This document shows, in pieces, positions 440 through 54,523 of a stretch of 64,000 bases of DNA. The DNA lies in NCBI GenBank assembly GCA_025061095.1, contig JANZKB010000001.1, positions 1,078-65,077 on the forward strand, given 5' to 3'. Made by a program: the position numbers and the translations under genes. Position 1 is the first letter of the stretch, and every line of letters starts with the position of its first letter. The stretch is from Candidatus Culexmicrobium thermophilum. Its GTDB lineage: Archaea > Thermoproteota > Methanomethylicia > Culexarchaeales > B10-G16. The notes beneath the pieces are model-generated. The model was given only the letters and a program-made list of their open reading frames with translations, searched no databases and had not been told where the DNA came from.

Positions 440-1135
440 TTGAAGAACGCGGAACACATAATCGAAAAAGCGCTGAAAGAAAATAGAAAGTTTCTATTGG
501 AAAGTGAATCGAAGAATATCTGTAAATTATATGGAATTCCAGTAACGAAATTCAAAGTGGCGGAAAATTTGGAAGAGGCATTAGAATATGCTGAAGAGAT
601 AGGTTATCCAGTAGTGTTCAAGATAGTTTCCCCTGATATAATACATAAAAGCGATGTGGGAGGGGTTATAATAAATATAAAAAACAGAGAAGATGCTGAA
701 AAAGCATACCACAAAATAATTGAAAATGTAAAGAAAAATAAGCCAGATGCAAGAATTAAAGGAATCTTCGTCCAGGAAATGGCGCCTGAAGGATTAGAAG
801 TCATAGTTGGTGCAATAAAAGATCCGCAGTTTGGACCTGCCATAATGTTCGGACTTGGAGGAATATTCGTGGAAATATTAAAGGATGTAACTTTCAGAAT
901 TGCGCCAATAACGAGAAAGGATGCTGAAGAAATGTTGAGAGAAATAAGGGGATATCCATTATTGAAAGGATTTAGGGGAAGCCCTCCCAGCGATGAGGAG
1001 GCGATCATAGACATCATGATGAAGGTCTCTAAACTCATAGTCGATCTTCCACAGATCAACCAGTTGGATCTGAATCCCATATTTGTTTATGAGAAAGGCG
1101 CGAAAGTTGTAGATGCGAGGATAATTTTAGAATGA
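440..1135 (+). CDS. ATP-grasp domain protein, ADP-forming acetyl-CoA synthetase beta-subunit-like
   Basis: ~230 aa; ATP-grasp glycine-rich region GYPVVFKIVSPDIIHKSDVGGV typical of AcdB/succinyl-CoA-synthetase beta N-domain. Confidence 0.55.
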   Translation: MKNAEHIIEKALKENRKFLLESESKNICKLYGIPVTKFKVAENLEEALEYAEEIGYPVVFKIVSPDIIHKSDVGGVIINIKNREDAEKAYHKIIENVKKNKPDARIKGIFVQEMAPEGLEVIVGAIKDPQFGPAIMFGLGGIFVEILKDVTFRIAPITRKDAEEMLREIRGYPLLKGFRGSPPSDEEAIIDIMMKVSKLIVDLPQINQLDLNPIFVYEKGAKVVDARIILE

Positions 1136-2010
1136 AAATCACCGATGAAATAGCGGAGATCAAAAGGAAGATTCAAAAGTTAAAAGAAGAGAGCATTAGA
1201 CTTGAAAAAGAGAAAGGAAAGCTAAGAGATAAGTTAATGGAAAATTTAACTGAAATAAGGAAGATAAAGATAAAGTTAAACGAATTTTTTTCTGAAGAAA
1301 AGAGAATTAAAGGAGAAATAATAGAAAAAGTGAAGGAAAAAAGAAAACTTGTCGAAGAGGCAAGGAAGATAAGAGACGAACTAAAGAAGAAGAGAGAAGA
1401 AATGGAGAAACTTAAGGAACAATATTTGAAGAAGAGAGGAGAGATAAGAGGAACTGTGAAAAAAGTGGAGGAGGAGATAAACAAGCTGGAATGGTATTAT
1501 CAGACAACACCGCTAAGCAAGGAAGAAGAAAGGGAAGTTGTGGAGAAAATAGCGAAGCTTAATAGAAGAAAGAAGGCTTTAGAAAATTTAAGAAAGATGA
1601 GAGATAGAATATTAGAGGTTCAAATAGATAGGCAAGCTATCCTCGCAAAATATAAAAGTATAAAGGAGAAGATTGATGAAATAAACGAAAGTATAAGGGA
1701 ATTAGATGAAGAAAAGAAGGAAATAATTCAGAGGATTATCGAACTTAAGAAGAATAAAGACGACTTGGGAAGAGGAATAGATGAGATTAAGAAGAAACTC
1801 AGCGAAATTTATTTGAGAATACGAAGAATAAATGACGATCTGATAAATCTGCAAGCTAAAAGGAAAGCGATAACATTGCTGAGCATGAAGAAAAGGGAGA
1901 GAGAAGTAAAAATAAAGTTGGCTGAAATAGCTAAAGAAAAAATGAGGAGAGGAGAGAAGCTAAGTTTCGAAGAATTCAAGGCATTAATGGAAATAGATAA
2001 GAAACTCTAA
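1132..2010 (+). CDS. Lys/Glu-rich coiled-coil protein
   Basis: 292 aa, heptad-like K/E/R-rich sequence; ATGA overlap with upstream gene. Confidence 0.5.
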   Translation: MKITDEIAEIKRKIQKLKEESIRLEKEKGKLRDKLMENLTEIRKIKIKLNEFFSEEKRIKGEIIEKVKEKRKLVEEARKIRDELKKKREEMEKLKEQYLKKRGEIRGTVKKVEEEINKLEWYYQTTPLSKEEEREVVEKIAKLNRRKKALENLRKMRDRILEVQIDRQAILAKYKSIKEKIDEINESIRELDEEKKEIIQRIIELKKNKDDLGRGIDEIKKKLSEIYLRIRRINDDLINLQAKRKAITLLSMKKREREVKIKLAEIAKEKMRRGEKLSFEEFKALMEIDKKL

Positions 2011-39395: not shown

Positions 39396-40961
39396 TTATT
39401 CCCACTTTTCACGCTTCTTCAGATATGCCCGCCAAGTAATCGCCCACCTCTCAGGATCTTCTAGGAACTCAGGGCGGATCTTATGGATTGGGCAATTGTG
39501 AGGAGCATTCTTAAGCTTCTCCGGCGTTTCATAAGCCTCTTCCACAACTCTCTTCAACGTTTCAAGATACTTGTCCAAGTCATCCTTCGAGTATGATTCT
39601 GTAGGTTCTATGGTGAATGGTTCTGGAATTATCCATGGATGATGGCTTGTCCAGAGATGGAAGCCGAAATCAGCCATTCTCCTTATAACGTCCTCTGATG
39701 TTATTCCAGTATCCTCCCTGAGCTTTTCAAAGCTATATCTCACTTGTTCAATACGTTGCTTCGTCTTTGGGAAGGAGATACTCGCACATTTCACCTCACT
39801 CAGAATCCTCTTCATAACATAATTATTATTTAACACCGCCACCCTCGCAACCTCCCTTATCCCCTCAGCTCCAAGACTCATTATCCAAGAATAAGCCCTT
39901 AGGATTACTGGAAAGACACCGTAGAACTCTCTAACCTTCCCAATGGAGTGTGACAGATCATAATTCAAATAATACTTTTCACCATTATACTCTACAATTG
40001 GAATTGGCAGAAAATCCACCAACCTATCTGTCACCCCCACAGCACCAACTGCAGGTCCACCACACCCATGAGGAGACGAGAACGTCTTATGCAAGTTAAA
40101 GAAGCCTAAATCGAAGCCGCAGTCCACCGCTCTAATAATTCCCAAAAGTCCATTTGCATTGGCCTGATCATATGCACACAATCCCCCCACACCATGCACA
40201 ATCTTTGTGAACTCCTTAATCCTTGGATTGAAGATCCCTGTATCCTCAGGATTCGTCACAATAAAGCCTGCTGTACGTTCAGAAACAGCTTTCTCCAATG
40301 CTTCAACATCAACCAATCCAGACTCGTTCGGATAGAGACTTATTACGCGATAACCCTTCACAGCTGGAGCAGCTGCATTGGATGGATGAGATAGCAATGT
40401 AGTTATGATCTCATCTCTCTTCTCCCCCTCACCTCTGAGCTCATGATATTTATGTATAATCGAGATTATGGTGAAGATGGCATGTGAGCCACCGCCGGGC
40501 TGAAATGTAAATCTGCTGAATCCGGAGAGCTCCCTCAAAAATAGATCCAGCTTATACATTATCTCAAGTGCACCTTGAATAGTATCCACATCTTGGAGTG
40601 GATGAAGTTCAGTGACCTTCGGAGAATTTGCTAAGAGATCATTTATTATGGGATTATACTTCATTGTACATGTTCCCTGGCCGATATCGATATTGAGGGT
40701 TGCACCCAAAGTCTCTTGAGATAGACGGAGATAATGCCTCAATACCCGTACCTGTGAGATCTCTGGAAGTCTAGGAGGATCCCTACGAATCATATGTTCA
40801 GGTAGGACTGAGACTCCGTCACCAACAAGCTCCTCAATCTCCTTCTCAACCTCTGGAACAATTATGCCACGCTCACCCTTCCTACTCAACTCAAAGATTA
40901 TCGGTTCACTCCATCTAGCCTCATGAAAATTTCTCAACTTGAAATCTCCTTTCCTCATCAT
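39396..40961 (-). CDS. gcvPB: glycine dehydrogenase (decarboxylating) subunit 2
   Basis: PLP-fold with NLHKTFSSPHGCGGP motif. Confidence 0.8.
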   Translation of the reverse strand: MMRKGDFKLRNFHEARWSEPIIFELSRKGERGIIVPEVEKEIEELVGDGVSVLPEHMIRRDPPRLPEISQVRVLRHYLRLSQETLGATLNIDIGQGTCTMKYNPIINDLLANSPKVTELHPLQDVDTIQGALEIMYKLDLFLRELSGFSRFTFQPGGGSHAIFTIISIIHKYHELRGEGEKRDEIITTLLSHPSNAAAPAVKGYRVISLYPNESGLVDVEALEKAVSERTAGFIVTNPEDTGIFNPRIKEFTKIVHGVGGLCAYDQANANGLLGIIRAVDCGFDLGFFNLHKTFSSPHGCGGPAVGAVGVTDRLVDFLPIPIVEYNGEKYYLNYDLSHSIGKVREFYGVFPVILRAYSWIMSLGAEGIREVARVAVLNNNYVMKRILSEVKCASISFPKTKQRIEQVRYSFEKLREDTGITSEDVIRRMADFGFHLWTSHHPWIIPEPFTIEPTESYSKDDLDKYLETLKRVVEEAYETPEKLKNAPHNCPIHKIRPEFLEDPERWAITWRAYLKKREKWE

Positions 40962-42379
40962 TTCGCTATGCCTCCCTCAATAATCTTCTTCAATGCATGG
41001 GCTAGGCGATCCAAACTCTCCTTCGTATGAAGCTCAGTAACACAGTATAAGGCGCTGGCACCTAACTCAGGAAATTTATCGGTGAGATCGATTCCACCGA
41101 AGATATTATAACTTAGCAGATTCCTGTTAATCTCATCAACCGAGAGAGAGGTGCCGTTGAAATCAACCACAAACTCTTTGAAATGTGGTGCTTTAAATCG
41201 CGGGGCTACAACACCTGGAATCTCGGATAAGAGTTTCATGGCATATTGAGATCTCTGCATTATCGTCTTACCAAGCATCTGCATACCATAAGGACCCATG
41301 AGAGAGAGATAGACTCCAGCGGTAATTCCCCATAATGCTGCAGCAGTGCCCACAAACTCCTTCGCCTTCTCCCGCCTCTCAAAGGAGGTCCTCTCAAATG
41401 CTACATCACCGAAACCATACTCACCATCAACAATGGTCTTAGTAATCCCGAAGAGACGTGAAGGATACTCCATCACAAACTTCTCCTCATCAGGAGTAGC
41501 GATGAAACCAGCTAAACCACCACCGAAATTCATATGAATCCCTAGAGGTTGAAGCTCACCGCAGACGATATCAGCATCATAACGACTGGGGGGAACGATT
41601 ACACCGAGAGAGATCGGATCAACACCAACAACAATCAGAGCATCAAACCTGTGGAGAGCATCGGATATCTCAGCGCCATGAGTCTCAATCGGACCAAGGT
41701 AAGATGGATTCTCAAAGTAGACTGCAGCAGTCTCCTCCGAGATCTTAGAATTTAAGTCATCCAAATCCATCATACCGGTCTCAGGATCATGCTTAACCAA
41801 CAAGATCTTCACAACAGGCTCACAATAATTTCTTATAATTGCAAGTCTCTCAGGGGAGATCGTGTCAGATATCAAAACTTCATCCCGCTTCGTGATCCTG
41901 CATGCCATTCTAATGGAGGTGGCGGCAGCCTGACCCCAACTATATGTTGGAACGTTAACAACATCCATCTCCACAAGTTCAGCGACCAAACTCTGATATT
42001 CGAAGAGAGCCTGCCACCTACCATGATCCTCCCACGGCTCACCGGCATATGCAGTCAAGAACTCCGATCTCCGATTGATCTCATCGCATATAGCAGGTAC
42101 ATAATGCTGCCAACATCCACCACCAAGAAAACTAACATAATCATCACACTCCCTATTTTTAGAGAGGATACCCTCAACATGACGCTTCAAATCTGCTTCA
42201 GACTGCAAGGGATCAGGCAGATTTAACACACCCTTAAACTTAAGCTCATCAGGGATGCTTGAGTAGAGTTGATCCATGCTCTCCACGCCTATCTCCCTCA
42301 GCATCTCTTTCTGGATATATGGAGAGGAGTTTGGGATATATGGATGAGCGCACTTCCTTTTAGACCTTTCATTCAACAT
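40958..42379 (-). CDS. gcvPA: glycine dehydrogenase (decarboxylating) subunit 1
   Basis: HPYIPNS N-terminal motif after internal Met; ATGA overlap with gcvPB. Confidence 0.75.
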   Translation of the reverse strand: MLNERSKRKCAHPYIPNSSPYIQKEMLREIGVESMDQLYSSIPDELKFKGVLNLPDPLQSEADLKRHVEGILSKNRECDDYVSFLGGGCWQHYVPAICDEINRRSEFLTAYAGEPWEDHGRWQALFEYQSLVAELVEMDVVNVPTYSWGQAAATSIRMACRITKRDEVLISDTISPERLAIIRNYCEPVVKILLVKHDPETGMMDLDDLNSKISEETAAVYFENPSYLGPIETHGAEISDALHRFDALIVVGVDPISLGVIVPPSRYDADIVCGELQPLGIHMNFGGGLAGFIATPDEEKFVMEYPSRLFGITKTIVDGEYGFGDVAFERTSFERREKAKEFVGTAAALWGITAGVYLSLMGPYGMQMLGKTIMQRSQYAMKLLSEIPGVVAPRFKAPHFKEFVVDFNGTSLSVDEINRNLLSYNIFGGIDLTDKFPELGASALYCVTELHTKESLDRLAHALKKIIEGGIAK

Positions 42380-42398
42380 ATGAATCAACCTCCTAAGA

Positions 42399-43154
42399 TC
42401 AAGCCAACCCTCCACCATCAACAACCAGGATCGCCCCTGTAACCCAACTTGAGAGATCACTCGCAAGGTAAAGAACCGCATTGGCAATGTCTTCAGGCTT
42501 CCCCACACGCTTAATCGGCCTATCAGCAGCCTCCTCCAAAAACTTATTTAAATCAACACCTAACTGACGGGCCTCACTTCGAAGAAGAGGCGTATCTACA
42601 TCTCCAGGACAGATACAGTTAACTCGAATCCCCTCCCTACCATGATCGATAGCCATAGCACGGGTAAGGTTGACAACCCCACCTTTAGAAGCACAGTAGG
42701 CTGCAGCTTTCGGACCGCCCTTTAATCCCCAACCGGAACCAATATTTATGATACAGCCGCCGCCACCCCTAACCATATAGGGAATGAAATGATGGGATGT
42801 AAGATAGATACCTTTAAGATTCACATCTAAGACTAGATCCCACTCCTCCTCACTCATCTCAACGACATTCTTCCTTACGATAACACCAGCACTATTTACA
42901 AGGATATCGATCCTCCCAAAATTTTCATAAACCCTCTCAGCCACCCTCTTACACTGAAGATTCGAAGTAATATCACAACGATAAAATCTCGCATCCACAC
43001 CAACCTCTTCAACTATCTTCAAAGCTTTTCTTCCCCCCTCCTCATCTATATCCAATAGGGCTATGTTCGCACCAGCCTCAGCCAGACGCTTAGCAACACC
43101 CAACCCTATCCCAGAAGCAGCACCAGTAACCACCGCAACCTTCCCATTTAACAT
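42399..43154 (-). CDS. short-chain dehydrogenase/reductase (SDR)
   Basis: GKVAVVTGAASGIG Rossmann motif, YxxxK. Confidence 0.75.
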   Translation of the reverse strand: MLNGKVAVVTGAASGIGLGVAKRLAEAGANIALLDIDEEGGRKALKIVEEVGVDARFYRCDITSNLQCKRVAERVYENFGRIDILVNSAGVIVRKNVVEMSEEEWDLVLDVNLKGIYLTSHHFIPYMVRGGGGCIINIGSGWGLKGGPKAAAYCASKGGVVNLTRAMAIDHGREGIRVNCICPGDVDTPLLRSEARQLGVDLNKFLEEAADRPIKRVGKPEDIANAVLYLASDLSSWVTGAILVVDGGGLA

Positions 43155-43442
43155 TACATGTTTCAATATCTCCTCAGAAACCATAAAATCACACTCCAAG
43201 ATTATATAAAGCTTAAAAGTTAATAACAATTAGTTTAATAATCCCTCAATATCAAATGATAGTGAATGAAGTGAAAGAAATGAAGATAATGATTATACAT
43301 GCTGAGAAGATGTGGTGGAAGATGATAAAACCTGTTAGAATGCCCTTAAAAGATGAAATCAACTCTAAGAATAAAAGAGACATAATACTTGCAGAATTAT
43401 TACGCTAGCATTTCCACCAAAATAAAAAATAGGCCTAACCGC

Positions 43443-43660
43443 TTATTTCGCTCCCCTTTTCAGTCACTTCTTCGGTTAGCGAATCGGTGACCGAAACTGG
43501 TTTTCGCTCACTTTTGGGTAGGAACAAGATTTTTGTTTCTGTCGCCCCGCTTACTTTTCGCTCACCTTCTCGCTCGGTTTCGGTCTCAATTTCGGTCTAT
43601 TTTCGGTCCCCTTTTCGCTCCCCTTTCAGCCCCCGCTCAGTCAATTTTTCGCTCATCTAG
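43443..43660. repeat. degenerate tandem array (8-9 copies) of a TTTTCG(C/G)TC(A/C)C unit plus an inverted repeat TTCGGT-N13-ACCGAA containing GGTGACC
   Basis: direct reading: ...atttcgctcccctttt...ttttcgctcactttt...cttttcgctcaccttctcgctcggtttcggtctcaatttcggtctattttcggtccccttttcgctcccc...tttttcgctcatc. Confidence 0.7.
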
Positions 43661-43756
43661 AAATATTAATAGAAGAATATAAACTTGGAAAAGCATCATC
43701 ATAAACAAAAAAGAGTAAACATTAGAAGATAAACCATAAAGAAAATAATAAAAAAG

Positions 43757-44109
43757 ATGAAGCCCCCCAAACCAGGTGGCGCATATAATCAAGCGGTGGA
43801 ATTTAATGGTCTCATCTTTGTCTCAGGACAACTGGCCAGAGATAAAGATGGAGGAGAGATAATTGAAGGCGACATAACAGCTCAAACAAAGAAGGTAATT
43901 CAAAACATAGAGAAGATACTTAAAGTAGCCGACAGCAGTTTAGATAACATACTGATGTCATTTGTATTCCTAAGAGAGAAAAGACTATTCGATAAATTCA
44001 ACGAAGAGTATAAGAAAAACTTCAAAAGGAATTACCAGCAAGAGTAACAGTCGGAGTAGAACTGGCTCCCAATGCATTGGTAGAAATCGCGGTCATAGCA
44101 CACAAATAG
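43757..44109 (+). pseudogene. ridA: RidA/YjgF-family deaminase gene with a 1-nt frameshift in an A-run
   Basis: frame 0 encodes PKPGGAYNQAVEFNGLIFVSGQ...; the C-terminal ...LPARVTVGVELAPNALVEIAVIA continues in another frame after 'aaaaacttcaaaagg'. Confidence 0.65.
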
Positions 44110-44413
44110 ATTAACAAAATAATGAAAAACAACAACCATTTCGCGGCTAGAATCGTAGAAAATAGAAGCATGAGTATAGCACTGAAAAAGCAGACGAAGA
44201 ACTTGAAGTAGCAATATGCATTAAAAACTCCGTTCCAGTATTGATAGCCGTAGCCACATCATTACCACATGGGATAGATGAACAGATATGAAGCTCAAGA
44301 TCTCTTCAGGATCCCCTCAAATGTAAACCTCTTGTCTAAAAATGTTCATGCCCTGAGAGAATGTAAAAAGTACAAATTATTTAACAATAGTAGTTTAAAA
44401 TATAAAACACGTA

Positions 44414-45424
44414 TTGTTAAGAGATTCTGTGGAGGGTGTGTTGGTGGTTAATTATTTTTTGGTTGCTGTTTCTAATAGGGAGAATTTGGGTTTGTGTTTG
44501 GATTTTGGTATGGCTGGTTTTCCTGGCAGTGTGAATGGTGTTTGGGCTTTTTGTGATGTTGAGGTTGGTGATTTTGTTTCTTTTCTTTACGCTGCTCATA
44601 TTTATAATCTTTATAGGGTTAGTGATAAGATGGCTATTTTGAGGGCTGAGGAGGCTCCTCCCTGGAAGCCTCTTGAGTTTAGGTCTGGTAGGGTTTATTA
44701 TTTTCCTTTTCGTTTGTTGCTTGAGCCTGTTCGTTGGTTTAGGGAGTCTTTGGTTCGTGCTGAGTTTGCCTATGTTGCTGAGAATTTATTGTTGCGTGGT
44801 GGTTATGCTAAGACTCATTTTCAGGCTGATCAGACGACTCTTCAGTGCGCATCTCAGTTAGGTGAGCTTGTTGAAAATTATTTGTTTAAGAGTGTTGACC
44901 TGAAGAAATATGGTGTTTTTACTCCGAAGTTTTCTCTGGATAAGAGTAGGGTGAATATGGTGGATGTCTATCCACTTAGGGAAATGATTTTACAGGCTTT
45001 GATAAGGAAGTATTTAAGTCAAGAAAATAATCTTGCCAGATTCCTAGAACTTATGGAAATTTCAGAAACTCAACCAAGATACTTGGAAGTATTGGGCGAG
45101 AAAGCTTTACCCGAAGGGCATGTAGATATTTTAATTAAGGAACGAACACCAATAGGCAAAGCAAAACTCATAATAATAGAAGTTAAAAGTGGCAGAGCTT
45201 ACCTAAGAGATCTAAAACAGCTTGAAAAATATAGAGCAGAGATCGGATCAGAATGTATTGGGGCATGCTTAATAGCAAAAGATTTTCCACGAAAAATAAT
45301 CAAATCTGAAAACAATATTAAACTACTCAAATATAATTTAGATATCATGAAAAATGAAGCCTACACCTTAAATCAACTACTCAAATCACTAACACTAATA
45401 AAAACAACAAAGCTAAAGCTATAA
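44414..45424 (+). CDS. PUA-like (EVE-type) domain fused to Mrr/NucS-like PD-(D/E)xK nuclease; predicted modification-dependent restriction endonuclease
   Basis: N-terminal ...VEVGDFVSFLYAAHIYNLYRV (EVE-like GD..FYxS strand pattern); C-terminal GHVDILIKE...LIIIEVKSGRAYLRDLKQLEKY (D...E-x-K); 5' ~570 nt uses NNT codons unlike host, 3' part host-like. Confidence 0.5.
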   Translation: MLRDSVEGVLVVNYFLVAVSNRENLGLCLDFGMAGFPGSVNGVWAFCDVEVGDFVSFLYAAHIYNLYRVSDKMAILRAEEAPPWKPLEFRSGRVYYFPFRLLLEPVRWFRESLVRAEFAYVAENLLLRGGYAKTHFQADQTTLQCASQLGELVENYLFKSVDLKKYGVFTPKFSLDKSRVNMVDVYPLREMILQALIRKYLSQENNLARFLELMEISETQPRYLEVLGEKALPEGHVDILIKERTPIGKAKLIIIEVKSGRAYLRDLKQLEKYRAEIGSECIGACLIAKDFPRKIIKSENNIKLLKYNLDIMKNEAYTLNQLLKSLTLIKTTKLKL

Positions 45425-45550
45425 ACAACATTACATACTATATTATCCATAAGAAGTTTGTTTAATGCTTCCCTCAAGTAAGCCATGGTTATGATATTGT
45501 AGATTAATTTAATCACCGCTAAAAAATTAAGGATCAGCAATATTAAATAG

Positions 45551-45853
45551 AGTAGTTTCCTTCATCTTCAAAATTGTCAGCTAGGAGGAATAACATATAA
45601 AAGATATTGGTGTATAGTTACGTCACCTGAAAACTGGGAAATATGTAAAAGAAATAATGTTTGGGGGATGAATGCAAGATATTATGTAACTCTTCAAAAA
45701 TTTCTGAAAACAGGAGGCCAAGCGGTAGTATATACTCATGGTGGAAAATTTGTCGCGGTTATGGAATTCATAGGTAACTGGTTCTATGAAGAAAAGGATA
45801 TAGGATGGACTAAAGGTAAAAGAATTTTTATTTCCGTACAGAATAAAGTTTAA
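45551..45853 (+). CDS. stand-alone EVE/PUA-like domain protein; no canonical start until ATG 45668 (possible pseudogene)
   Basis: in-frame translation from 45551: ...RYWCIVTSPENWEICKRNNVWGMNARYYVTLQKFLKTGGQAVVYTHGGKFVAVMEF...W...IFISV matches the EVE pattern; a GGAGG Shine-Dalgarno-like motif lies upstream but no ATG/GTG/TTG in frame. Confidence 0.45.
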   Translation, partial: SSFLHLQNCQLGGITYKRYWCIVTSPENWEICKRNNVWGMNARYYVTLQKFLKTGGQAVVYTHGGKFVAVMEFIGNWFYEEKDIGWTKGKRIFISVQNKV

Positions 45854-46265
45854 AATCCTTCATGAAGCTAAAACCTGTTAAAATATCTTATTCTATTGTA
45901 GAGGAAGGAAGTAAAGCAAAATGGATCAATCCTAATTTCATTGATGATATTACTTTTATTGCAGATAAAAGGAAAAACATGGAATCAGTATTTACAAGTT
46001 TCAATTATTAGAATAATGAAAGAGGATTTTGACACAATATGTGAAGCGATTAAAAGGAATTGACAAAAATATGCTTGCCAATGATATACTGAATAATCCA
46101 TATTGTGCATTAGTTTATTATTTTGATTACTTTGTTTAGTGTTTCTGCTTTGATGATGGATGCGCTGAGGCTGAAGATCTCTTCCCTTGTTATTATCATG
46201 TTGGGTGTGACTTCTTTAAATATTGAGGCTTTGATGTAGTAGCTCTTTTGATGCTTCTGTTCCTT

Positions 46266-46799
46266 CTAATTCTCTAATAGCTTTAAAATTCGTTCTCCAA
46301 GTTTTTGAGCTTCCTTCAGTGCTTCTTCATCTTTTAGGATGTCGCCTTTTTCGAATGCGTATCCTAGAATGCCTGGAATTTTAGTCATTTTCAATCTTGA
46401 TAGATATTCTTCTATTTCACCTATTGTGGAACCTATTTTTCTTCTTCCAACAACAATGTATGTGCCGATTTTTCCTTCGAGCTGCCCCTTTCTGAGGAAC
46501 CATGTTCTTTCCATGAAAGCTCGAAGCCTGGATGTTACACCTCCCATGTATGAAGGGCTGGACAGGATTATGACGTCGGCTTCTTTGAGCTTGGGGTATA
46601 GCTTTTGCATATCATCCTCTATAACGCATTGGTTGTTCTCCTCACAGTAATGACATCCCTCACAGGGCTTAATGTTATAATCCTTTAGAAAAATAATTTC
46701 TGTCTCATATTTTTTCTTAAGAATCTTCATAACTTCCTCAAGCAATTGTGCAGTGTTTCCATTCTTATGCGGAGAACCAATAATTCCAATAGCTTTCAT
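46266..46799 (-). CDS. NADPH-dependent FMN reductase / iron-sulfur flavoprotein (Isf-like)
   Basis: flavodoxin-like fold GIIGSPHKNGNT; CEGCHYC Cys motif. Confidence 0.6.
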   Translation of the reverse strand: MKAIGIIGSPHKNGNTAQLLEEVMKILKKKYETEIIFLKDYNIKPCEGCHYCEENNQCVIEDDMQKLYPKLKEADVIILSSPSYMGGVTSRLRAFMERTWFLRKGQLEGKIGTYIVVGRRKIGSTIGEIEEYLSRLKMTKIPGILGYAFEKGDILKDEEALKEAQKLGERILKLLEN

Positions 46800-46804
46800 A
46801 ACCT

Positions 46805-47560
46805 TTACTCCCTCATTTGGTTGATTATATGGAAACGGATACCGATGTAGAGAAACAAAGACAAATAGAGAACAAGAATTCCCACATTAACTAAAGGATG
46901 GAAAGTAGTCGTCTCTCCAAGCCCTTTCCTAAGCAATTCTATAGTATGAGTAAGGGGAGAGAAGAATGATATAATCTGTGCCCAAGACGGCAGATCCTTA
47001 ATTGGAATAAAGATACCGCTGATAAAGAGCAGGGGCAATCTGACAAAGTTCAGAGGCATCATAACTTGACCGGGATTCTGACCGGGGATTGAGGCAAACA
47101 TTATCCCCATGGTGGCAAAACAGAGGGCTGAGAGAACCATTCCAGCCAACAATGCTGCAAAATCACTTATTAGAGAATTGAAAAAGAAGAATCCGACGAT
47201 TATTGGGATGATGGAGATCAATAAACCATAAAGAAAGCCTGCAAACGTCTTGCCTAAAAGTACAGTAATAAGAGAAACGGGAGCAGCAAAAAATCGATCA
47301 AAAGTCTTAATTCTCCGCTCAAGAGGGATGGTTACAGGTCCAATAGTGGAAGAGGCGAAGAATAGCGTCTGAGCAACGAGAATTGGAATTGCACTATGGA
47401 CAGAGATCTTCCGACCTATCACAAAAGATAGAAACAAGGAGCAGGGAAAAAGAATACCAAAAACCAAGGAAGGAAACTTAACATAATAGATACGTATATC
47501 CTTCTCACTAATTGCCAAAGCAACACGAATCTCCCTTAAGAGACGCTTAGAAGTTATCAA
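46805..47560 (-). CDS. ABC-2 family transporter permease
   Basis: 6 TM segments; overlaps ATPase gene by 4 nt. Confidence 0.65.
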   Translation of the reverse strand: MITSKRLLREIRVALAISEKDIRIYYVKFPSLVFGILFPCSLFLSFVIGRKISVHSAIPILVAQTLFFASSTIGPVTIPLERRIKTFDRFFAAPVSLITVLLGKTFAGFLYGLLISIIPIIVGFFFFNSLISDFAALLAGMVLSALCFATMGIMFASIPGQNPGQVMMPLNFVRLPLLFISGIFIPIKDLPSWAQIISFFSPLTHTIELLRKGLGETTTFHPLVNVGILVLYLSLFLYIGIRFHIINQMRE

Positions 47561-48585
47561 GACTTCACCCCCTTATTACGTCCCATATCCCGCTTCTTCC
47601 TCTTCCAAGCAGATCCACCTTCAGACCTCTCAGACACCTCAGGTTCAACGCCTGTAAGCTCCAAGAACACGTCAGTTAAACTCGGTCCTAAAGTATTCAA
47701 AGTAATTATCTTCAAATTATTAGCTTTAACATAATCCCAGAGAGCAGAAAGCAGAGCAGAAGGTTCCTCAGTATATAATTTATATTTATCACCATACTTT
47801 ACAACACGAGTAACCGTTGGAAGCTTATTGAGATCACTTAGCAAACCATTAACCTCACGATAGAATGAGACCTCAACAGACTGAAGCCTCTTTGCGGTAC
47901 GCTTCAACCTCTCGGGAGTATCGATGGCCACTATCTTCCCCCTATTAATTATAGCCACTCTATCACACATCTGGTTCGCCTCCTCCAAATTATGAGTAGT
48001 AAGAAAGATCGTCAACCCCTCTTCATTCAACTTGCGAATCAAATTTCTTATCGTCAAAACACTCTGAACATCAAGACCAGAAGTAGGCTCATCCAAAAAT
48101 AAAACGGAAGAATCATTCATAAGAGCCATAGCTATACAGAGACGCCGCTTCATCCCTCTCGAGAAATTCTCAACCTTTACATTACGCTTATCATAAAGAT
48201 TAAATAACTTCAAGAGCTCCTCAGCCTTCCTCTCCCTTTCAGGCTTAGGAATGTCATAAAGCTTACCGATAAAAATCAAATTATCCCATGCAGACAACTC
48301 AGTATAAACATTCGAGATATCCGTAACTATACCAATCAATTCCTTAGCCTCTACAGACTGACGCTGAATATCAAAACCCATAATCTTCGCATAACCCTCA
48401 CTGGGCCTTGAAATACCCGTCAACATCCGAACCGTCGTCGTCTTCCCAGCACCATTAGGCCCAAGAAAACCAAAGATCTCCCCACACTTAACCTCAAAAC
48501 ATATATGATCAACAGCAAGAAGATCCCCATAATACTTCGTAAGATTAACCGCCTCAATAGCAGGCTCCGCAGAAATTCGACTCAT
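47557..48585 (-). CDS. ABC transporter ATP-binding protein
   Basis: Walker A GPNGAGKTT, signature LSRGMKRRL, Walker B LFLDEPT. Confidence 0.85.
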   Translation of the reverse strand: MSRISAEPAIEAVNLTKYYGDLLAVDHICFEVKCGEIFGFLGPNGAGKTTTVRMLTGISRPSEGYAKIMGFDIQRQSVEAKELIGIVTDISNVYTELSAWDNLIFIGKLYDIPKPERERKAEELLKLFNLYDKRNVKVENFSRGMKRRLCIAMALMNDSSVLFLDEPTSGLDVQSVLTIRNLIRKLNEEGLTIFLTTHNLEEANQMCDRVAIINRGKIVAIDTPERLKRTAKRLQSVEVSFYREVNGLLSDLNKLPTVTRVVKYGDKYKLYTEEPSALLSALWDYVKANNLKIITLNTLGPSLTDVFLELTGVEPEVSERSEGGSAWKRKKRDMGRNKGVKS

Positions 48586-48793
48586 AAATTTAATGCCTCC
48601 AATAAAAAGAAATAAATCATTATTTAACTAAATGGGCAAAAATATATTATTTTTGCCCATTCACCAAACCAACAACCGAAAAATTACAAAAATCAATCAA
48701 AACCGACAAAATTGACCATTATCACAGAACTAACCATAACAGGATCTATAAGAATAGAAGATAAGCAACTAGAGGAATTTTGAGGAATATACG

Positions 48794-49966
48794 CTAGAAA
48801 GTATTTACATCATACTTCACTAAACTCTTTAGAGACGCATCCTCACCTCTAAGTTGTAGATATGAGAATATGGAAAAAGCGACATAAGATATCCCTGAAA
48901 TTGTGAATGCTATAGGATAGCCGAATTTTTCTATAAGCAAACCAAATAAAATTAGAGAAGTGAATTCAATAATTCTCAGAGGTATGTGCAAGATTCCTAT
49001 ATCTATTGAAAGTGTCTCATGCCTATCCTTACTCACCTTTGCGATAATTGACTCATAAAAACGTGTTCCAAGACCACCTGCAATGGCTAAGGTAATCACT
49101 AAAACTGGCATAAACGATGGAAAATACGGCAAACTAATGCATGTAACAAGATATATGATACTTTGGATTACTGCACGCATAATGCTCAGTGAAAGTTTTA
49201 AGGTTCCGAAGATAGTAATAGAGGAGATTATATTGAACCCCATAAAGATTATTCCAATAAACATATAGTCATAACCCAATAACTCAGACATAAAGATCGG
49301 TAACACAAAAGAGGCTAACGGATATCTAGCTAAACTATTAAGAGCCAGTATCAAAGAAGTATACCAAAAATCCCTACTCCGACCCCTCGGGTCCAAAGAC
49401 TTCAAAACCCTAAACAAATCAAGCTTCACACGCCTTACACCAGCACTCCAAAGTAACGCTGTAGGGTAAAGAAGAAGCAATGAAGCAAGTATAAGTAAGA
49501 TAAAAGCAGCTCCAGCACCAATCAATGACATAATTAGACCAGTAACAGCACTTCCAAAAGCACCACCCAACGTAACAGTTGCAATCATCCGCGTAGCCTC
49601 TCCAGCCTCCTTATTAGGAGACAACAGATAGGTGGCGGTTCTACTCACAGCCCAATATGCCGAAACTGATATACCCTCCATAATCTTACCCACAGCAAAA
49701 TCGATAGGCGAACTAGCGAACAAATAGATGAAAGAAGCAGAGGAAAGAGTCAACCAATTTACCAAAAAAATTGGAGACCAACCGACCTGATCAGCTAAAG
49801 CTGCAAGTATAATCCTAATGAAAAGAAATACTAATGGAAGGATTGACATGATAACGCCGATTTCAGCTAAACTAACATTCCTATCCAACAAAACAAGTGG
49901 AATGGCAATTCCAAAACCACCTGAAACAAAACTCGTCAAGAAAGATGTGAGCAGCACTCTCCACAT
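48794..49966 (-). CDS. MFS-type transporter
   Basis: 12 predicted TM helices. Confidence 0.6.
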   Translation of the reverse strand: MWRVLLTSFLTSFVSGGFGIAIPLVLLDRNVSLAEIGVIMSILPLVFLFIRIILAALADQVGWSPIFLVNWLTLSSASFIYLFASSPIDFAVGKIMEGISVSAYWAVSRTATYLLSPNKEAGEATRMIATVTLGGAFGSAVTGLIMSLIGAGAAFILLILASLLLLYPTALLWSAGVRRVKLDLFRVLKSLDPRGRSRDFWYTSLILALNSLARYPLASFVLPIFMSELLGYDYMFIGIIFMGFNIISSITIFGTLKLSLSIMRAVIQSIIYLVTCISLPYFPSFMPVLVITLAIAGGLGTRFYESIIAKVSKDRHETLSIDIGILHIPLRIIEFTSLILFGLLIEKFGYPIAFTISGISYVAFSIFSYLQLRGEDASLKSLVKYDVNTF

Positions 49967-50155
49967 AATAAATCACCAAGACAAGAACTAAATACATAGA
50001 GGAAAGATATAAAACATTTATTGAATCATCTTTAAATAATATGCGATAACGGGTTTGAAGTAAAATATAATAATGTTTGGTGTTTTAACAAATTACTTAT
50101 TCTGAAATGAAGTTGGTATCCATCAAATGATAATTGAAAATATCTTTAGATAGCT

Positions 50156-52057
50156 TTACGTTTTAGTCTTCATTTGTTTCCAAATTATGAGGATAATTGT
50201 AATGCTTATTAGTGTTAGGATTATTGGCAGACCCATGGAGTAAATTGTAGATGTTGCCTTTCCTTTTTTGACTTCTAGGATTATTGTTTTGCTTGTGGCT
50301 TTTATATGGTTAACATCTCCTTTCCAGCTGGCTTTTAAATAGAAAATTCCTTCTGTTTGCGATGTCCATTGATAGGTGTAGGTTCCAGTTTGGTCTGTTT
50401 TTATCTCTGTTAGCTTGTTGAAGATCTTTCCATCTGTGGATTTTAGAATGTTTATTGTGGCTTGATTAATAGGTGGATTTATTTTTCCTGTTATAGTAAT
50501 GGTTTCACCTGTTGTAACTGTTGTTTTTGATGCTTCTATGGTTAGGGTGCTTTGAATTTTTAATATGGTTATGGTGTATGTGGTGGTTGCTCCATAGTGG
50601 TCTTGATCGCCTTCCCAGCTTGCTTCAATTACGTATTTACCTGGTGTCGGAGGCTTCCATGTGATGGAGTATTCGCCTTTCATATTGGTAGTTGTGATTT
50701 CAATGGTTGACCAGGATAAACCTTCGTTTATGGTATATCTTAATTTAACGGGGGCCATTGTGTGAGTTGGATTTATAGCTCCACTTATAACTACCTCTTC
50801 GCCAATGGTTATGTTTGATGGAAAAACTATGCATGTGATTGAGCTTGGTGACTTCTCTTCACCATTGGAATAACCTTTTGTTGATTGTTGGAATCTCCAG
50901 TCTGTATCGGAATTATTATCTTGGCCGTTTGGATACCTAGCCCAACACTGATCATCATTAGCAGTATCACTTTTTATGGGTGTTCGGTCCACCTCTCTAC
51001 CTTGAGCATCAAGCAATATTATGGATTCATCCTCATTGTCCAACCACTCTTGACCACGGCTATAAACATAATATCCATATGGTTCTATCACAGTTTCTTG
51101 AGGAATAGTTATGGTAACTGTCTCCCCATGGGTTGTAATTAATTTCCAATTGCTAATATCCACTGAATTTGAAGTTGGATTATAGAGTTCAACCCACTCC
51201 TCCACTGATAGAGATTTATCATTTCCAGGTGGGTTAGATTCAAACTCATTGATTACAATATGCTCTACTGCTTGAGTGGAAAAGGCCTCCAAATACAATG
51301 TATGTAGAACATCTGTAATGTAATTGACAGCAAGATTAAGTGATTCGCCACATCTATTTCTAAATATTGGATTGGACCAATTATAGTTTTGATCCATCCA
51401 TACACATGTCAGATTTCCGTCAACATCAAATGTCGTATCATATGCAAGTTTTACAGCTGCATCATATGCCGAGATAATGTCGAGGCTTCCATCAAAGGAG
51501 AGATAAATATTGAACTCTGAATCATAACTTGAAGTTCTTTGACTAACATACTCCTCATAATCACTGTGATGATGTTCCGCTCCCCAATCGGTATTAGCTC
51601 CCATAACATGACCAAACACGGCCATGTCAGCAATATAGTGACTCATAATCCCCACACACTTAGCTGCTTCAACATAATCTCTTTCCCTCAAAAAATTCAG
51701 AGCTTCATTATAGGTGGCGGCGACTCTAACTGCCGCTGAATCGTCGATTAGAACTTCATGCAAATTGAAATATATATGATGTAGGGCTGTGTCTCCAATA
51801 CCGTCAGGAACTTGGCCATTATCAGGTAACTCTGTTGCATATAAGTACATTGCAAGATTATCCAAGATATATTGCTTCTCTTCAATAGGCAACCAATCTA
51901 AAGCATGCTGGGCAATCCAATCATGAGTACCATACTTTGGATTTGAAGGATCATCACTAAAACCACCATTACTCCAAGCGGAAACTTGAACGAATGAGGA
52001 TACTGAAAGCAAAGATAGAAGAGGAATTAGAAATATGAGACGATTCATAGGAACCAT
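50156..52057 (-). CDS. secreted, membrane-anchored multidomain protein: Zn-dependent phospholipase C/S1-P1-nuclease-like domain + lamin-tail domain + Ig-like repeats + C-terminal TM anchor
   Basis: signal peptide; W-x-tH...H cluster; INEFESNPPGND...EWVELYN lamin-tail-like motif; repeated beta-rich modules; terminal hydrophobic helix + KTKT. Confidence 0.55.
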   Translation of the reverse strand: MVPMNRLIFLIPLLSLLSVSSFVQVSAWSNGGFSDDPSNPKYGTHDWIAQHALDWLPIEEKQYILDNLAMYLYATELPDNGQVPDGIGDTALHHIYFNLHEVLIDDSAAVRVAATYNEALNFLRERDYVEAAKCVGIMSHYIADMAVFGHVMGANTDWGAEHHHSDYEEYVSQRTSSYDSEFNIYLSFDGSLDIISAYDAAVKLAYDTTFDVDGNLTCVWMDQNYNWSNPIFRNRCGESLNLAVNYITDVLHTLYLEAFSTQAVEHIVINEFESNPPGNDKSLSVEEWVELYNPTSNSVDISNWKLITTHGETVTITIPQETVIEPYGYYVYSRGQEWLDNEDESIILLDAQGREVDRTPIKSDTANDDQCWARYPNGQDNNSDTDWRFQQSTKGYSNGEEKSPSSITCIVFPSNITIGEEVVISGAINPTHTMAPVKLRYTINEGLSWSTIEITTTNMKGEYSITWKPPTPGKYVIEASWEGDQDHYGATTTYTITILKIQSTLTIEASKTTVTTGETITITGKINPPINQATINILKSTDGKIFNKLTEIKTDQTGTYTYQWTSQTEGIFYLKASWKGDVNHIKATSKTIILEVKKGKATSTIYSMGLPIILTLISITIILIIWKQMKTKT

Positions 52058-52459
52058 GGTTAATCACATAGATTGAGAACTAAGCAAATAATTCTCTTCA
52101 ATTAATTTATATATTTTTACAAAATTAGTTATGTCGCCATATAAGGCTGAATTGAGCTATACTACTTATCGCTCCTGATTAAGGAAGAATTAAGAGTGCT
52201 TGAATAATAATGAATTAAAAATATTCTTTGAAAACTGTTTATCTCTTTAACGTGGAGAAATGCTCTTTAAGTTTAAGATCTACTTAGAGTTAAATTACGG
52301 TCTCATTCTCACCTTAACATGAACAAGTTAACAGTAAATTAGTAAGTAGATAAAGCTTCATGGCATTTAAGAGATAAAGGATCAATTCACCTAATAGGCT
52401 TCAAAATTTAATTTAAAAAAGCAAAGCTAAAATACATTTTGTAATTTAATGTTCACTGT

Positions 52460-53137
52460 ATGTTAACTGGAGACCCTCTCTCAAACGATCTCGTAGTAGG
52501 CTTAATTGTTGCTGTTCCCATACTTTTAGCTGTCACGTTAACTAAAAAGATAGGTGGCGGGTATTGTTGGGTTAATAGAAAGATCATCCATTTCAGCACA
52601 ATTCCAGCAGTATATGCCTATTTATACATTTTTAATGACATTTATATTTGGACTATTTTTGCTCTAGGTTTTGTACTATACACGTTGATTCCACACTTGA
52701 AGAATAGGGAGAAGGATTGGTTTCAAGTTAAAGGTAATTTTGGCGAAGTTTACTATTGTTTAATCTACTTGATTGTTGGATCAGTTTTCTTCTATATTAA
52801 TCGTCCATTAGCTGCTGTAGCTATGCTTCTAACCGCTATAGGTGATGGTATTACTGGAATTATCCGCTTCTTCCTTTTTAAGAGGAAGGAGGAAGCTATT
52901 TCACTATATGTCTCAACTGATCCAAATGTTCGAAAAGCTTGCAAAACCATTGCAGGTACATTGGGTTTTCTAGCTGTTGGGATTCCATTAACTGCTTTCT
53001 TTTTCGGAGTTTTAAAAGGAGTTATCATTACTTTAATTTCGGCAATTGCTGAAAAGCAGCATTTACTAGATGATAATCTTGCAATTCCAGCTACAGTTTT
53101 AATAACTTACTATATTATGTTACCGTTCCAGTTTTAA
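52460..53137 (+). CDS. polytopic membrane protein, polyprenol/dolichol-kinase-like
   Basis: 6-7 TM helices; AIGDGITGIIR motif. Confidence 0.35.
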   Translation: MLTGDPLSNDLVVGLIVAVPILLAVTLTKKIGGGYCWVNRKIIHFSTIPAVYAYLYIFNDIYIWTIFALGFVLYTLIPHLKNREKDWFQVKGNFGEVYYCLIYLIVGSVFFYINRPLAAVAMLLTAIGDGITGIIRFFLFKRKEEAISLYVSTDPNVRKACKTIAGTLGFLAVGIPLTAFFFGVLKGVIITLISAIAEKQHLLDDNLAIPATVLITYYIMLPFQF

Positions 53138-53218
53138 GCAACTTGAATATCGTTAACCATTTTATATTCTAACTTTCATGGACTAATTTAATCTGCCATT
53201 AAATTGTTGAAGGTTATC

Positions 53219-54523
53219 TCAGCCTACGAGGTATAGTTCTTCTTGTCTTCCATTCATCCAATACATCTTATTATTAGTGAATACGGCATCATCTTCTAAA
53301 GCCATTCGTATTTCCAAGTTATTCCATTCAGGTATTGAGTTATATGTGCATAGTTCTATTGAGTAACATGTATCTTCATAGAGTGGGTAGTCACCTCTGC
53401 CTGGAACACCTTCCTGTTTGTCCCATAAACCTATTGTTGGCCCTGCTCCATGGCCGTGGAAGCCTAGTGGATGTGTATATATTCTTCCCTTAATTCCCTC
53501 ATTTTCAGCTTTCTCTAGAGCAGCCTTCAATATTTGGTTTCCAGTTCTACCTACTTCGAATTCCTCAAGTAGGATGTCTTGCAATCTATTCGTTACGGTT
53601 AGCGCTTCTTTAAGTCCTTTTGGCGCATCGGATTCACCGAGCTTTAGGATGTAGGCGTTGTGTTGTGTATCTGTGCATAGACCTAGATATCTTATTCCTA
53701 CATCGCAGTGTATTAGATCTCCAGGCAATATGAGTTTTCTACGTTCTTTCCGTTTCTCACCGAACTTCATTGGAGGCTGATCTGGGGCTTGAATATCCAC
53801 TGTTGGATGGAACCATGTCTCCAAGCCTAATTCGAGAATTGTTTGACGTATCCACCAAACCACGTCATTTGTGGTAGTTATACCGGGATGGATAACATTG
53901 TTTGAGAAGGCTTCGCGGATTATTGTATGAGCTATTTCAAGGATACCTGGATATGCATCTATCTCAGGTTTGATACGCTTCTCCAGCCATCCGACAGCTA
54001 GACGCTCAGCACCCCTAACCCTACTCATGTATTCATCGCCTAAAGCCTTCCGCAGCAATAGATATTCGGTATGGGTTAATCCATCGCCGAAGGCAAAATT
54101 CTCTGAAATATTTATTCCGATACATTTTGGATCCCTCTCCCTAACCAATCTGGCCAAACAGGTATATTGATCCTCCTTCTCAGGATCCCAGGCAGCCTCA
54201 TAATAGCCCTCAATACCATAACGAGAAAGGACTAGACGCTCAAGACTCCCATCCCTTTTAAGTGTGAAGAGCAATATGGTTCTTCTCCTAGCTGAAAGCA
54301 TGGTTGCAGGAAGAAGGGAGAGCATAACTGGATCCTCATTATACTCCCTGCCAGCAACGATCCACATATCGAAGCCTTCACGCAGCATAATCTCTGGCAG
54401 AACCCTCTGCAATCTCTCCTTCAACCATTCATTAACAATTCTAGCCCTATCCTTTAGAGATAGAATCTTATGGGCAATTGAAGATATACCTGTGGAGCCG
54501 GAAGGCTTAAAAGATTCAACCAA
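53219..54523 (-). CDS. M24-family metallopeptidase-like protein (creatinase/prolidase fold)
   Basis: HCDVG..., HGHGAG..., E...E pattern in C-terminal half. Confidence 0.5.
   Translation of the reverse strand: MVESFKPSGSTGISSIAHKILSLKDRARIVNEWLKERLQRVLPEIMLREGFDMWIVAGREYNEDPVMLSLLPATMLSARRRTILLFTLKRDGSLERLVLSRYGIEGYYEAAWDPEKEDQYTCLARLVRERDPKCIGINISENFAFGDGLTHTEYLLLRKALGDEYMSRVRGAERLAVGWLEKRIKPEIDAYPGILEIAHTIIREAFSNNVIHPGITTTNDVVWWIRQTILELGLETWFHPTVDIQAPDQPPMKFGEKRKERRKLILPGDLIHCDVGIRYLGLCTDTQHNAYILKLGESDAPKGLKEALTVTNRLQDILLEEFEVGRTGNQILKAALEKAENEGIKGRIYTHPLGFHGHGAGPTIGLWDKQEGVPGRGDYPLYEDTCYSIELCTYNSIPEWNNLEIRMALEDDAVFTNNKMYWMNGRQEELYLVG

Follow-up and report, generated by a model that had tools for sequence, protein, structure and literature searches.

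A candidate modification-dependent restriction endonuclease family joining an EVE/YTH-like barrel to a NucS-type nuclease

The gene that ends at position 45,424 on the forward strand of the window (the whole 64,000-nucleotide stretch of DNA analysed here) codes for a compact protein in which a predicted PUA-superfamily β-barrel of the EVE/YTH type is followed by a NucS/RecB-type PD-(D/E)xK nuclease domain. On balance, we lean towards the reading that this protein, with its two domains, acts on its own as a modification-dependent (type IV-like) restriction endonuclease and belongs to a large, horizontally spread family. PUA-superfamily readers joined to nucleases form the standard architecture of modification-dependent endonucleases, as in MspJI, AspBHI, PvuRts1I, VcaM4I and TagI, and fold comparison places the window protein in the type IV architecture, with a domain of the modified-base-sensor type fused to a nuclease domain. 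The A-poor codons that fill the 5′ part of the gene are, in our best estimate, a matter separate from the function of the enzyme.

Gene and domain architecture

The features of the gene and its product, all on the forward strand, are as follows.

44394–44407, forward strand: TATA-like box TTTAAAATATAAAA, a putative archaeal promoter read from the sequence
44414–45424, forward strand: maximal open reading frame, 336 aa from a TTG codon with no interruptions, as in the sequence-only reading
44431–44438, forward strand: Shine-Dalgarno-like GGAGGGTG, 5 nt before the GTG at 44444, a putative role read from the sequence
44444–45424, forward strand: most likely coding sequence, 326 aa with a GTG start; P0001 and P0002 are called from the same position
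44453–44863, forward strand: predicted PUA-like (EVE/YTH-type) β-barrel domain, residues ~14–150, from fold comparison
44864–45058, forward strand: variable linker and two helices leading to the nuclease core, residues ~151–215, from the secondary structure of the model
45059–45403, forward strand: predicted NucS/RecB-type PD-(D/E)xK nuclease domain, residues ~216–330
45125–45127, forward strand: codon of the predicted catalytic Asp238 (GHVD), at least 95% conserved among 75 sequences and aligned to the NucS active-site strand
45179–45187, forward strand: codons of Glu256-Val-Lys258 (ExK motif), with E256 and K258 at least 95% conserved among the 75 and aligned to the E-x-K of NucS/EndoMS
45218–45232, forward strand: codons of Gln269-x-x-x-Tyr273 (QxxxY helix motif, NucS/RecB-type), with Q269 and Y273 at least 95% conserved among the 75 and aligned to QMKRY/QLKSY of NucS/EndoMS

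The motifs quoted in the sequence-only reading (YFLVAVS, VEVGDFVSFLYAAHIYNLYRV, GHVDILIKE and KLIIIEVKSGRAYLRDLKQLEKY) are all present in the translation of the maximal frame. The true start is nevertheless probably the GTG at 44444 and not the TTG at 44414, because the 99% identical database protein P0001 (N-terminus MVNYF) and the 83% relative P0002 (N-terminus MVGYF) both begin there, because the TTG lies only ~7 nt downstream of the TATA-like box and because GGAGGGTG stands upstream of the GTG. Family alignments begin at the YFL strand. At the DNA level, homology to L001, the locus of an 83% relative, spans only 44391–45428, that is the promoter and the gene with the TATA-like box included, and the flanks otherwise differ. 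A promoter/terminator scan gave a signal at chance level, and an Rfam scan of 42.5–47 kb returned no RNA element that would account for nucleotide constraint.

The C-terminal domain is, as judged from its sequence, a NucS/RecB-type PD-(D/E)xK nuclease whose D...ExK...QxxxY active site is intact. The NucS_C profile (PF01939) matches the window protein with 22.6–23.6 bits (E 5e-5 to 1e-4), slightly under the 24-bit gathering score, and 27 of 28 family members give a match, the strongest at E 3.2e-8; some family members in the databases carry a precomputed PF01939 annotation. When the family profile was compared with the PDB, NucS and EndoMS were found with D238, E256-x-K258 and Q269xxxY273 aligned to active-site residues, and EndoMS was also matched by Foldseek with the model. 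In contrast, Mrr_cat (PF04471) gave no match for the window protein and matched two of the 28 members weakly (E 0.004). The proposal of an Mrr/NucS-like nuclease thus holds for its NucS side, while membership of the Mrr family is ruled out by these near-absent matches. Orthology to NucS is ruled out as well, by a score of 19.1 bits against a cut-off of 216 for the NucS equivalog NCBIfam NF003270, whose match is limited to residues 228–277, and by the presence of a PUA-like domain in place of the NucS N-terminal domain.

The N-terminal domain is, according to the structural model, a PUA-superfamily β-barrel of the EVE/YTH type. Foldseek with the model matched PH1033 (E 2e-5, TM 0.69) and MJECL36 (E 4e-5), and the modelled pseudo-barrel is superposable on solved EVE, YTH and ASCH domains. 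Profile searches gave a different picture. An hmmscan of residues 1–149 against Pfam returned no family at E ≤ 10, and hence none of the profiles EVE (PF01878), ASCH (PF04266) and SRA (PF02182) by which the sequence-only reading had proposed to check the domain; the EVE, YTH, ASCH and SRA profiles matched none of the 28 family members; a phmmer and profile search of the PDB found nothing for the N-terminal part; and residues 1–210 were not recognised by Pfam, NCBIfam, PADLOC or PHROGs. The EVE/PUA assignment is therefore upheld by fold and not by sequence profile and, since profiles are blind to the domain, the case for a reader function is entirely one of fold similarity.

Residues 14–150, encoded by the A-poor 5′ part of the gene, are the best conserved portion of the family. 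They include an invariant core, AENLLLRGGY(R/A)KTHFQADQTTLQ, at aa 122–144 and a set of conserved, mostly aromatic residues that are candidates for a base-binding pocket (W44, F57, Y59, Y67, W84, F97, Y120, Y131, H135 and F136). The linker region (residues ~151–215) is the least conserved stretch of the alignment, although E190 and Q194 are conserved within it. This pattern bears on whether the 5′ half is coding, since A-poor sequence is free of stop codons by its composition and the frame might have been open only because A is rare, with just the 3′ ~150 codons translated. Such a reading is close to impossible: it is refuted by the conservation of residues 14–150 above all others in more than 1,100 members of normal composition, and the same residues are modelled as a confident domain with pLDDT above 90.

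Family distribution and known relatives

A search with the window protein among 5.8 billion clustered proteins gave 1,166 matches, all of them full-length, ~320–335 aa long and typically 50–57% identical, and named solely "hypothetical protein" (more than 1,100 clusters). Protein-level conservation in more than 1,000 homologues of ordinary base composition confirms that the 5′ half is coding, and the window gene, on the evidence of these alignments, is a real, coding and conserved protein gene. In a scan of one genome per species, the gene was present in 167 of 185,579 species. The archaeal hosts are Bathyarchaeia, Geothermarchaeota, Brockarchaeota, Archaeoglobaceae, Thermococcus, Hadarchaeales, Woesearchaeota and Methanosarcinales, and the bacterial hosts are Dehalococcoidia, Planctomycetota, Acidobacteriota, Armatimonadota/Fervidibacter, Patescibacteria, Caldatribacterium, Thermovorax and Caldicoprobacter. 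Archaeal and bacterial members share ~50% identity, occur in a scattered manner and are intermingled in the protein tree. This patchy, cross-domain pattern of tree and distribution suggests an accessory, horizontally moving gene. A family search of sequenced plasmids, phages and IMG/VR viral contigs gave no match, so that the vehicle of mobility is unseen, which counts against the restriction reading.

Fusions of PUA-like domains to nucleases function as modification-dependent enzymes (PMC6765204, PMC7897488), and the reader–nuclease architecture of the window protein is borne out by the structural comparison with MspJI that the sequence-only reading had suggested: Foldseek aligned the whole model with MspJI (E 9e-5) and also with AspBHI. 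These two type IIM/IV modification-dependent enzymes have the same reader-then-nuclease domain order as the window protein, but their reader is SRA-like and not EVE/YTH-like, their nuclease is not of the NucS type, their length is 390–450 aa against ~326 aa here, and sequence similarity is undetectable. VcaM4I and TspA15I are EVE-HNH fusions, whereas the window nuclease is a NucS-like PD-(D/E)xK domain. YenY4I, an EVE-DUF3427-PD-(D/E)XK protein, is the sole PUA-PD(D/E)XK enzyme that the NEB screen assayed, and its activity there was weak (PMC6765204); the window protein lacks its extra DUF3427. From EVE-nuclease fusions in general, the window family differs in an N-terminal domain that is invisible to the Pfam EVE profile and in a methyltransferase adjacency of ~24% as opposed to under 6%.

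Differences are also found with respect to the closest relatives of each domain. PH1033 and MJECL36, archaeal stand-alone EVE-type proteins (UPF0310), consist of a single domain and share 13–17% identity with no profile-level match. NucS/EndoMS, the archaeal/actinobacterial mismatch endonuclease, has an N-terminal dimerisation/DNA-binding domain that is absent from the window protein, and the sporadic distribution of the window family sets it further apart. The parallel offered by END-Mag is one of principle, in that a NucS-like PD-DExK effector is likewise coupled to a sensor of non-canonical bases; experiments have demonstrated that END-Mag restricts phages whose guanine is modified (Yee et al. 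2025, PMC12191111). However, its sensor is an inactivated EndoIII/Ogg domain with the helix-hairpin-helix glycosylase fold, not a PUA-like domain, and it has another domain order and belongs to another family.

The statement in the sequence-only reading that this exact layout is only predicted was roughly right, and a catalogue of putative type IV enzymes already lists EVE-PD(D/E)XK fusions (Bell et al. 2020, PMC7641849). The general kind is thus already known. The window family sets itself apart by the combination, in a compact protein, of a profile-invisible EVE/YTH-like barrel with a NucS-type nuclease, and is further distinguished by a bias to archaea and uncultivated lineages and by an unusual methyltransferase partnership.

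Genomic context and proposed function

The window copy is flanked upstream by a RidA-like gene and downstream by two tiny unannotated ORFs, which are followed by an FMN-reductase/ABC-transporter operon. No methyltransferase or defence gene is adjacent at this locus, and the setting amid housekeeping genes, outside any defence island, counts against a restriction reading.

We surveyed the context of 79 independent genome loci, 51 of which have at least 900 nt on both sides. The commonest neighbour over the 79 loci is a beta-class N6_N4_Mtase (PF01555, Pfam E 9e-60), the closest solved relative of which is CcrM (E 1e-55). It is directly adjacent in 18 of the 79 loci and in 12 of the 51 fully flanked ones (~24%), while 39 of these 51 (~76%), the window copy included, are solitary, with no adjacent DNA methyltransferase. 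Among the 18 linked loci, the methyltransferase shares the strand of the nuclease in 16, and its end usually either overlaps the nuclease start or lies no more than tens of nucleotides from it. An adjacent methyltransferase was reported for under 6% of PUA-nuclease ORFs (PMC6765204), which makes the ~24% adjacency unusual for PUA-nucleases. HEPN/nucleotidyltransferase and PIN genes also recur as neighbours in several loci and, in Fervidibacter, a DpnII-type endonuclease directly follows the gene in a cassette inserted between pyrB and pyrC.

This partnership raises the possibility that the nuclease is the restriction subunit of a type II-like pair, which would cut unmethylated sites while a CcrM/HinfI-like N6-adenine methyltransferase, encoded elsewhere in the genome for the solitary loci, protects the host. 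The adjacent, same-strand methyltransferases are spread over several clades, and the pairwise identities of nuclease and methyltransferase correlate (r 0.71), both of which favour such a pair. We nevertheless consider it unlikely. The obligatory pairing of endonuclease and methyltransferase that type II systems show is not found: three quarters of the loci, including that of the window, have no adjacent methyltransferase, yet the solitary copies keep every catalytic and candidate pocket residue. Similarly, no alignment column among 75 sequences discriminates linked from solitary nucleases, suggesting that the enzyme is tolerated without a protective methylase. The mean identity of the nuclease (56%) exceeds that of the methyltransferase (45%), the opposite of what is typical for type II systems; one of the partners carries SPPY, of the N4-cytosine type, while the rest carry DPPY; and the avoidance of methylated sites needs no dedicated modified-base reader fold.

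Modification-dependent restriction, which the sequence-only reading had proposed, is made plausible by the reader–nuclease architecture and by the mostly solitary occurrence, whereas the co-varying CcrM-like methyltransferase in ~24% of loci complicates a type IV assignment. In the mechanism that we propose for this function, the reader domain would take up a modified base, flipped from the DNA duplex, in a putative pocket of conserved aromatic residues, and capture of the base would position or license the nuclease, which probably acts as a dimer in the manner of NucS, for cleavage close by. DNA that enters the cell with the modification would be destroyed, and the unmodified host genome would be spared without a protective methyltransferase. 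Since the enzyme survives alone, it presumably does not attack unmodified host DNA, and since it also survives beside the methylase, it presumably does not attack DNA bearing the m6A of its partner. From this double tolerance, we infer that m6A from the CcrM-like partner is a less likely trigger than a modified cytosine or a base that is hypermodified.

The same partnership admits a reading in which the EVE/YTH-like domain would read the m6A of the linked methyltransferase, as a 'self' off-switch for the NucS-like nuclease or else for strand discrimination in the manner of MutH, the logic of such a pair being as yet undescribed. We hold this reading to be distinctly unlikely. If true, the pair would carry out restriction or repair by means of a dedicated methyl-reader domain in place of passive steric exclusion.

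A role in methyl- or lesion-directed repair or maintenance, as a MutH-like m6A-reading nickase or as a NucS-like enzyme whose PUA-like domain senses damaged bases, appears improbable. The nuclease domain most resembles the mismatch endonuclease NucS/EndoMS, a CcrM-like adenine methylase partner is reminiscent of Dam-MutH, the family is unusually well conserved and has numerous invariant positions, and some copies lie beside genes of nucleotide metabolism or repair (pyrB/pyrC, RNR and RNase HII). However, such housekeeping neighbours change from clade to clade, occurrence in so few species with a patchy cross-domain phylogeny fits an accessory mobile gene, and the failure of the NucS equivalog model and the lack of the NucS N-terminal domain speak against a NucS-like function. 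It is very improbable that the enzyme targets modified RNA by way of a YTH-like m6A-RNA reader, because the best fold match is an archaeal protein of the EVE type, PH1033, rather than a YTH domain, because DNA is the substrate of NucS-type nucleases and of every PUA-nuclease precedent, and because the recurrent partner is a DNA methyltransferase. Modification-dependent restriction of DNA is the reading that we favour.

Strand skew of the 5′ part and implications

The composition of the 5′ part concerns the following features.

44426–44990, forward strand: stretch depleted of A and C (T>G) on the sense strand, starting at about the predicted transcription start and ending near codon 190
42399–43229, reverse strand: SDR gene with the same kind of skew, weaker
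47557–48585, reverse strand: ABC ATPase gene with the same kind of skew, weaker

The lowest A fraction of the 64 kb, 0.133, is found at 44478, and the A-depleted stretch has an AT skew of -0.53 and a GC skew of +0.54. The G+T skew of +0.52 is the maximum of the window, about 4.5 SD. In codons 11–190, NNY codons end in T in 48 of 51 cases, against 64% in the reference genes of the window, and NNR codons end in G in 40 of 45, against 37%. The four-fold sites of the same codons read T62 G8 C4 A2 (82% T and 3% A, as opposed to 31% T and 39% A in the reference genes), so that the codon rule is T where possible and otherwise G. Beyond about codon 190 the gene is A-rich, with four-fold sites of A28 C10 G2 T9. 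These skews and codon counts bear out the earlier description of an A-depleted 5′ two-thirds with T-ending codons followed by an A-rich nuclease part.

The further assertion that this skew is unlike every host gene here does not hold, as the ABC ATPase and SDR genes are skewed likewise, though more weakly. From ~39.4 to ~54.5 kb, genes on both strands are A- and C-depleted at their own sense-strand third positions, and the depletion is maximal beside each promoter and falls off along the transcription unit. The order is SDR > GcvP1 > GcvP2 > NAD kinase in one operon and ABC ATPase (0.06–0.26) > ABC permease > FMN reductase in another; the MFS, PLC-like and M24 peptidase genes are also skewed. 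The independent locus L001 exhibits the same skew with the same gradient, whereas it was not found in the 63–71% relatives L083, L084 and L086 or in ~78 other family loci. A second G+T-rich patch at 50.2–50.7 kb was considered as the same skew or as a mis-called strand and rejected, being the Thr/Ile/Lys-rich Ig-like C-terminus of a secreted protein; this patch can also be aligned to L001.

The sequence-only reading had suggested that the A-depleted part is a reader module gained by recombination or horizontal transfer and joined to a host-like nuclease. The abrupt switch in codon usage near codon 190 is in keeping with this, as is the nucleotide identity to L001 of 92–97% in the 5′ part and 74–81% in the 3′ part. 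However, the N- and C-terminal parts have identical nearest relatives, namely P0001, P0002 and then P0003–P0006, donor-like composition is found in none of ~80 other family loci, and opposite-strand neighbouring operons show the same T/G skew with the same 5′ to 3′ decay. Four-fold-site identity to L001 is 0.90, only slightly more than the 0.84 that shared composition would produce; this fit to composition, together with the shared relatives of both halves, led us to reject recent recombination as the source of the high 5′ identity. Amino-acid content is shifted in the same way as the codons, with K+N+I+T amounting to 0.12 where the family averages 0.20 and V+G+A+F to 0.33 where it averages 0.26 in the A-poor part, and with a shift in the opposite direction in the 3′ part; this joint shift points to mutational pressure in situ. 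Given the skew of the neighbouring operons and the shared relatives of both halves, the imported module is not supported, and we regard it as quite improbable.

Our best guess is that the A-poor codons reflect a promoter-proximal sense-strand T>G skew, separate from enzyme function, that arose when bases of the non-template strand were deaminated (C>T and A>G, with T as the sink) in a transcription-linked process. Between the window and L002, a contig of a 99.6% strain, substitutions in the relevant genes are too few to give a mutational direction. The magnitude of the skew is far above ordinary transcriptional asymmetry, and the extreme promoter-proximal T-else-G recoding could mark an unusually strong transcription-coupled deamination in this lineage. 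The codon skew may expose a strong transcription-linked mutational process, and for those who scan genomes it carries a caution: an abrupt change of composition within a gene does not on its own count as evidence for horizontal transfer.

If the enzyme is modification-dependent, the family would provide, from uncultivated archaea and bacteria, a class of small (~326 aa) and probably thermostable enzymes that unite an EVE/YTH-like with a NucS-like domain and could serve the mapping of modified bases, and it would fill a gap in Pfam and in the catalogues of defence systems, where its more than 1,100 clusters figure only as hypothetical proteins. The co-evolving CcrM-like partner contradicts the rule that PUA-nuclease genes avoid methyltransferases, and it poses the question of how reader and writer coexist.

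The PPW loop of the reader domain and the bacterial loci

The PUA-like domain at the N-terminus of the reader–nuclease carries a PPW loop that is nearly invariant across the family, with the consensus LPPW:

44654–44668: APPWK, residues 81–85, the reader-domain PPW loop

In N6/N4 DNA methyltransferases, a (D/N/S)PP(Y/F/W) motif binds the flipped amino-base. The PPW loop of the reader domain looks like this motif, and the likeness may be a coincidence.

In Fervidibacter/Armatimonadota, the reader–nuclease gene is inserted into the pyrimidine operon between pyrB and pyrC; the loci from this group are L055 (8981–9937) and L059, both from Fervidibacter spp., together with L050, L065 and L021. Two of the species encode, 12 nt downstream of the reader–nuclease gene, a restriction endonuclease of the DpnII family (PF04556, E 2e-34); their cassette between pyrB and pyrC contains no methyltransferase.

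Regional third-position skew and other compositional outliers

Across 39396–54523, genes on both strands are depleted of A and C at their third codon positions (T>G-ending codons) in a sense-strand-specific manner. The depletion is at its maximum beside each promoter and fades in the 5' to 3' direction along each transcription unit. Examples include the following:

42399–43229 (−): SDR gene, third-position A/C 0.18–0.36
47557–48585 (−): ABC ATPase gene, third-position A/C 0.06–0.26
within 39396–54523: GcvP1/GcvP2, MFS, PLC-like and M24 peptidase genes

On the same measure, the genes at 0–39 kb and 55–64 kb of the window lie near 0.5.

On the plus strand, the G+T patch that ranks second in strength, 50200–50700, corresponds to the 3' part of the following gene:

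50156–52057 (−): 633-aa secreted protein; domains Zn-dependent phospholipase C and lamin-tail, plus Ig-like (Big_3_5) repeats

The C-terminus of this protein is rich in Thr, Ile and Lys, and the protein also has a TM anchor. Only two stretches of the window can be aligned to L001, the 83% relative, and the 3' part of this gene is one of them. Elsewhere, the T fraction on the plus strand falls to its window minimum of 0.14 at 1278–1613, inside the gene at 1132–2010 (+); this stretch is possibly a mirror-image compositional outlier.

Strain variation and assembly borders

Comparison with L002, a 99.6%-identical strain contig, revealed that identity collapses between window 48522–48900 and L002 12100–12363, in the region upstream of the ABC ATPase gene and at its 5' end, where C>T/G>A changes form a cluster, followed by indels. 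Of the neighbouring operons, the most skewed is the one whose promoter lies at this strain-variable spot. L002 is also distinguished from the window by a 13-nt deletion (43618–43630) within an intergenic tract flanked by divergent promoters:

43440–43660: degenerate repeats TTTCGCTC(C/A)CC / TTTCGGTC on the plus strand

A search of this tract against Rfam returned no match. When this organism was assembled independently, the reader–nuclease gene came to lie on a contig of only 2.7 kb (L003, CAZWBF010000064.1; window 43545–46288). The breaks of this contig, upstream within the repeat tract and downstream where the FMN-reductase gene ends, suggest strain heterogeneity or repeats at both borders of the segment.
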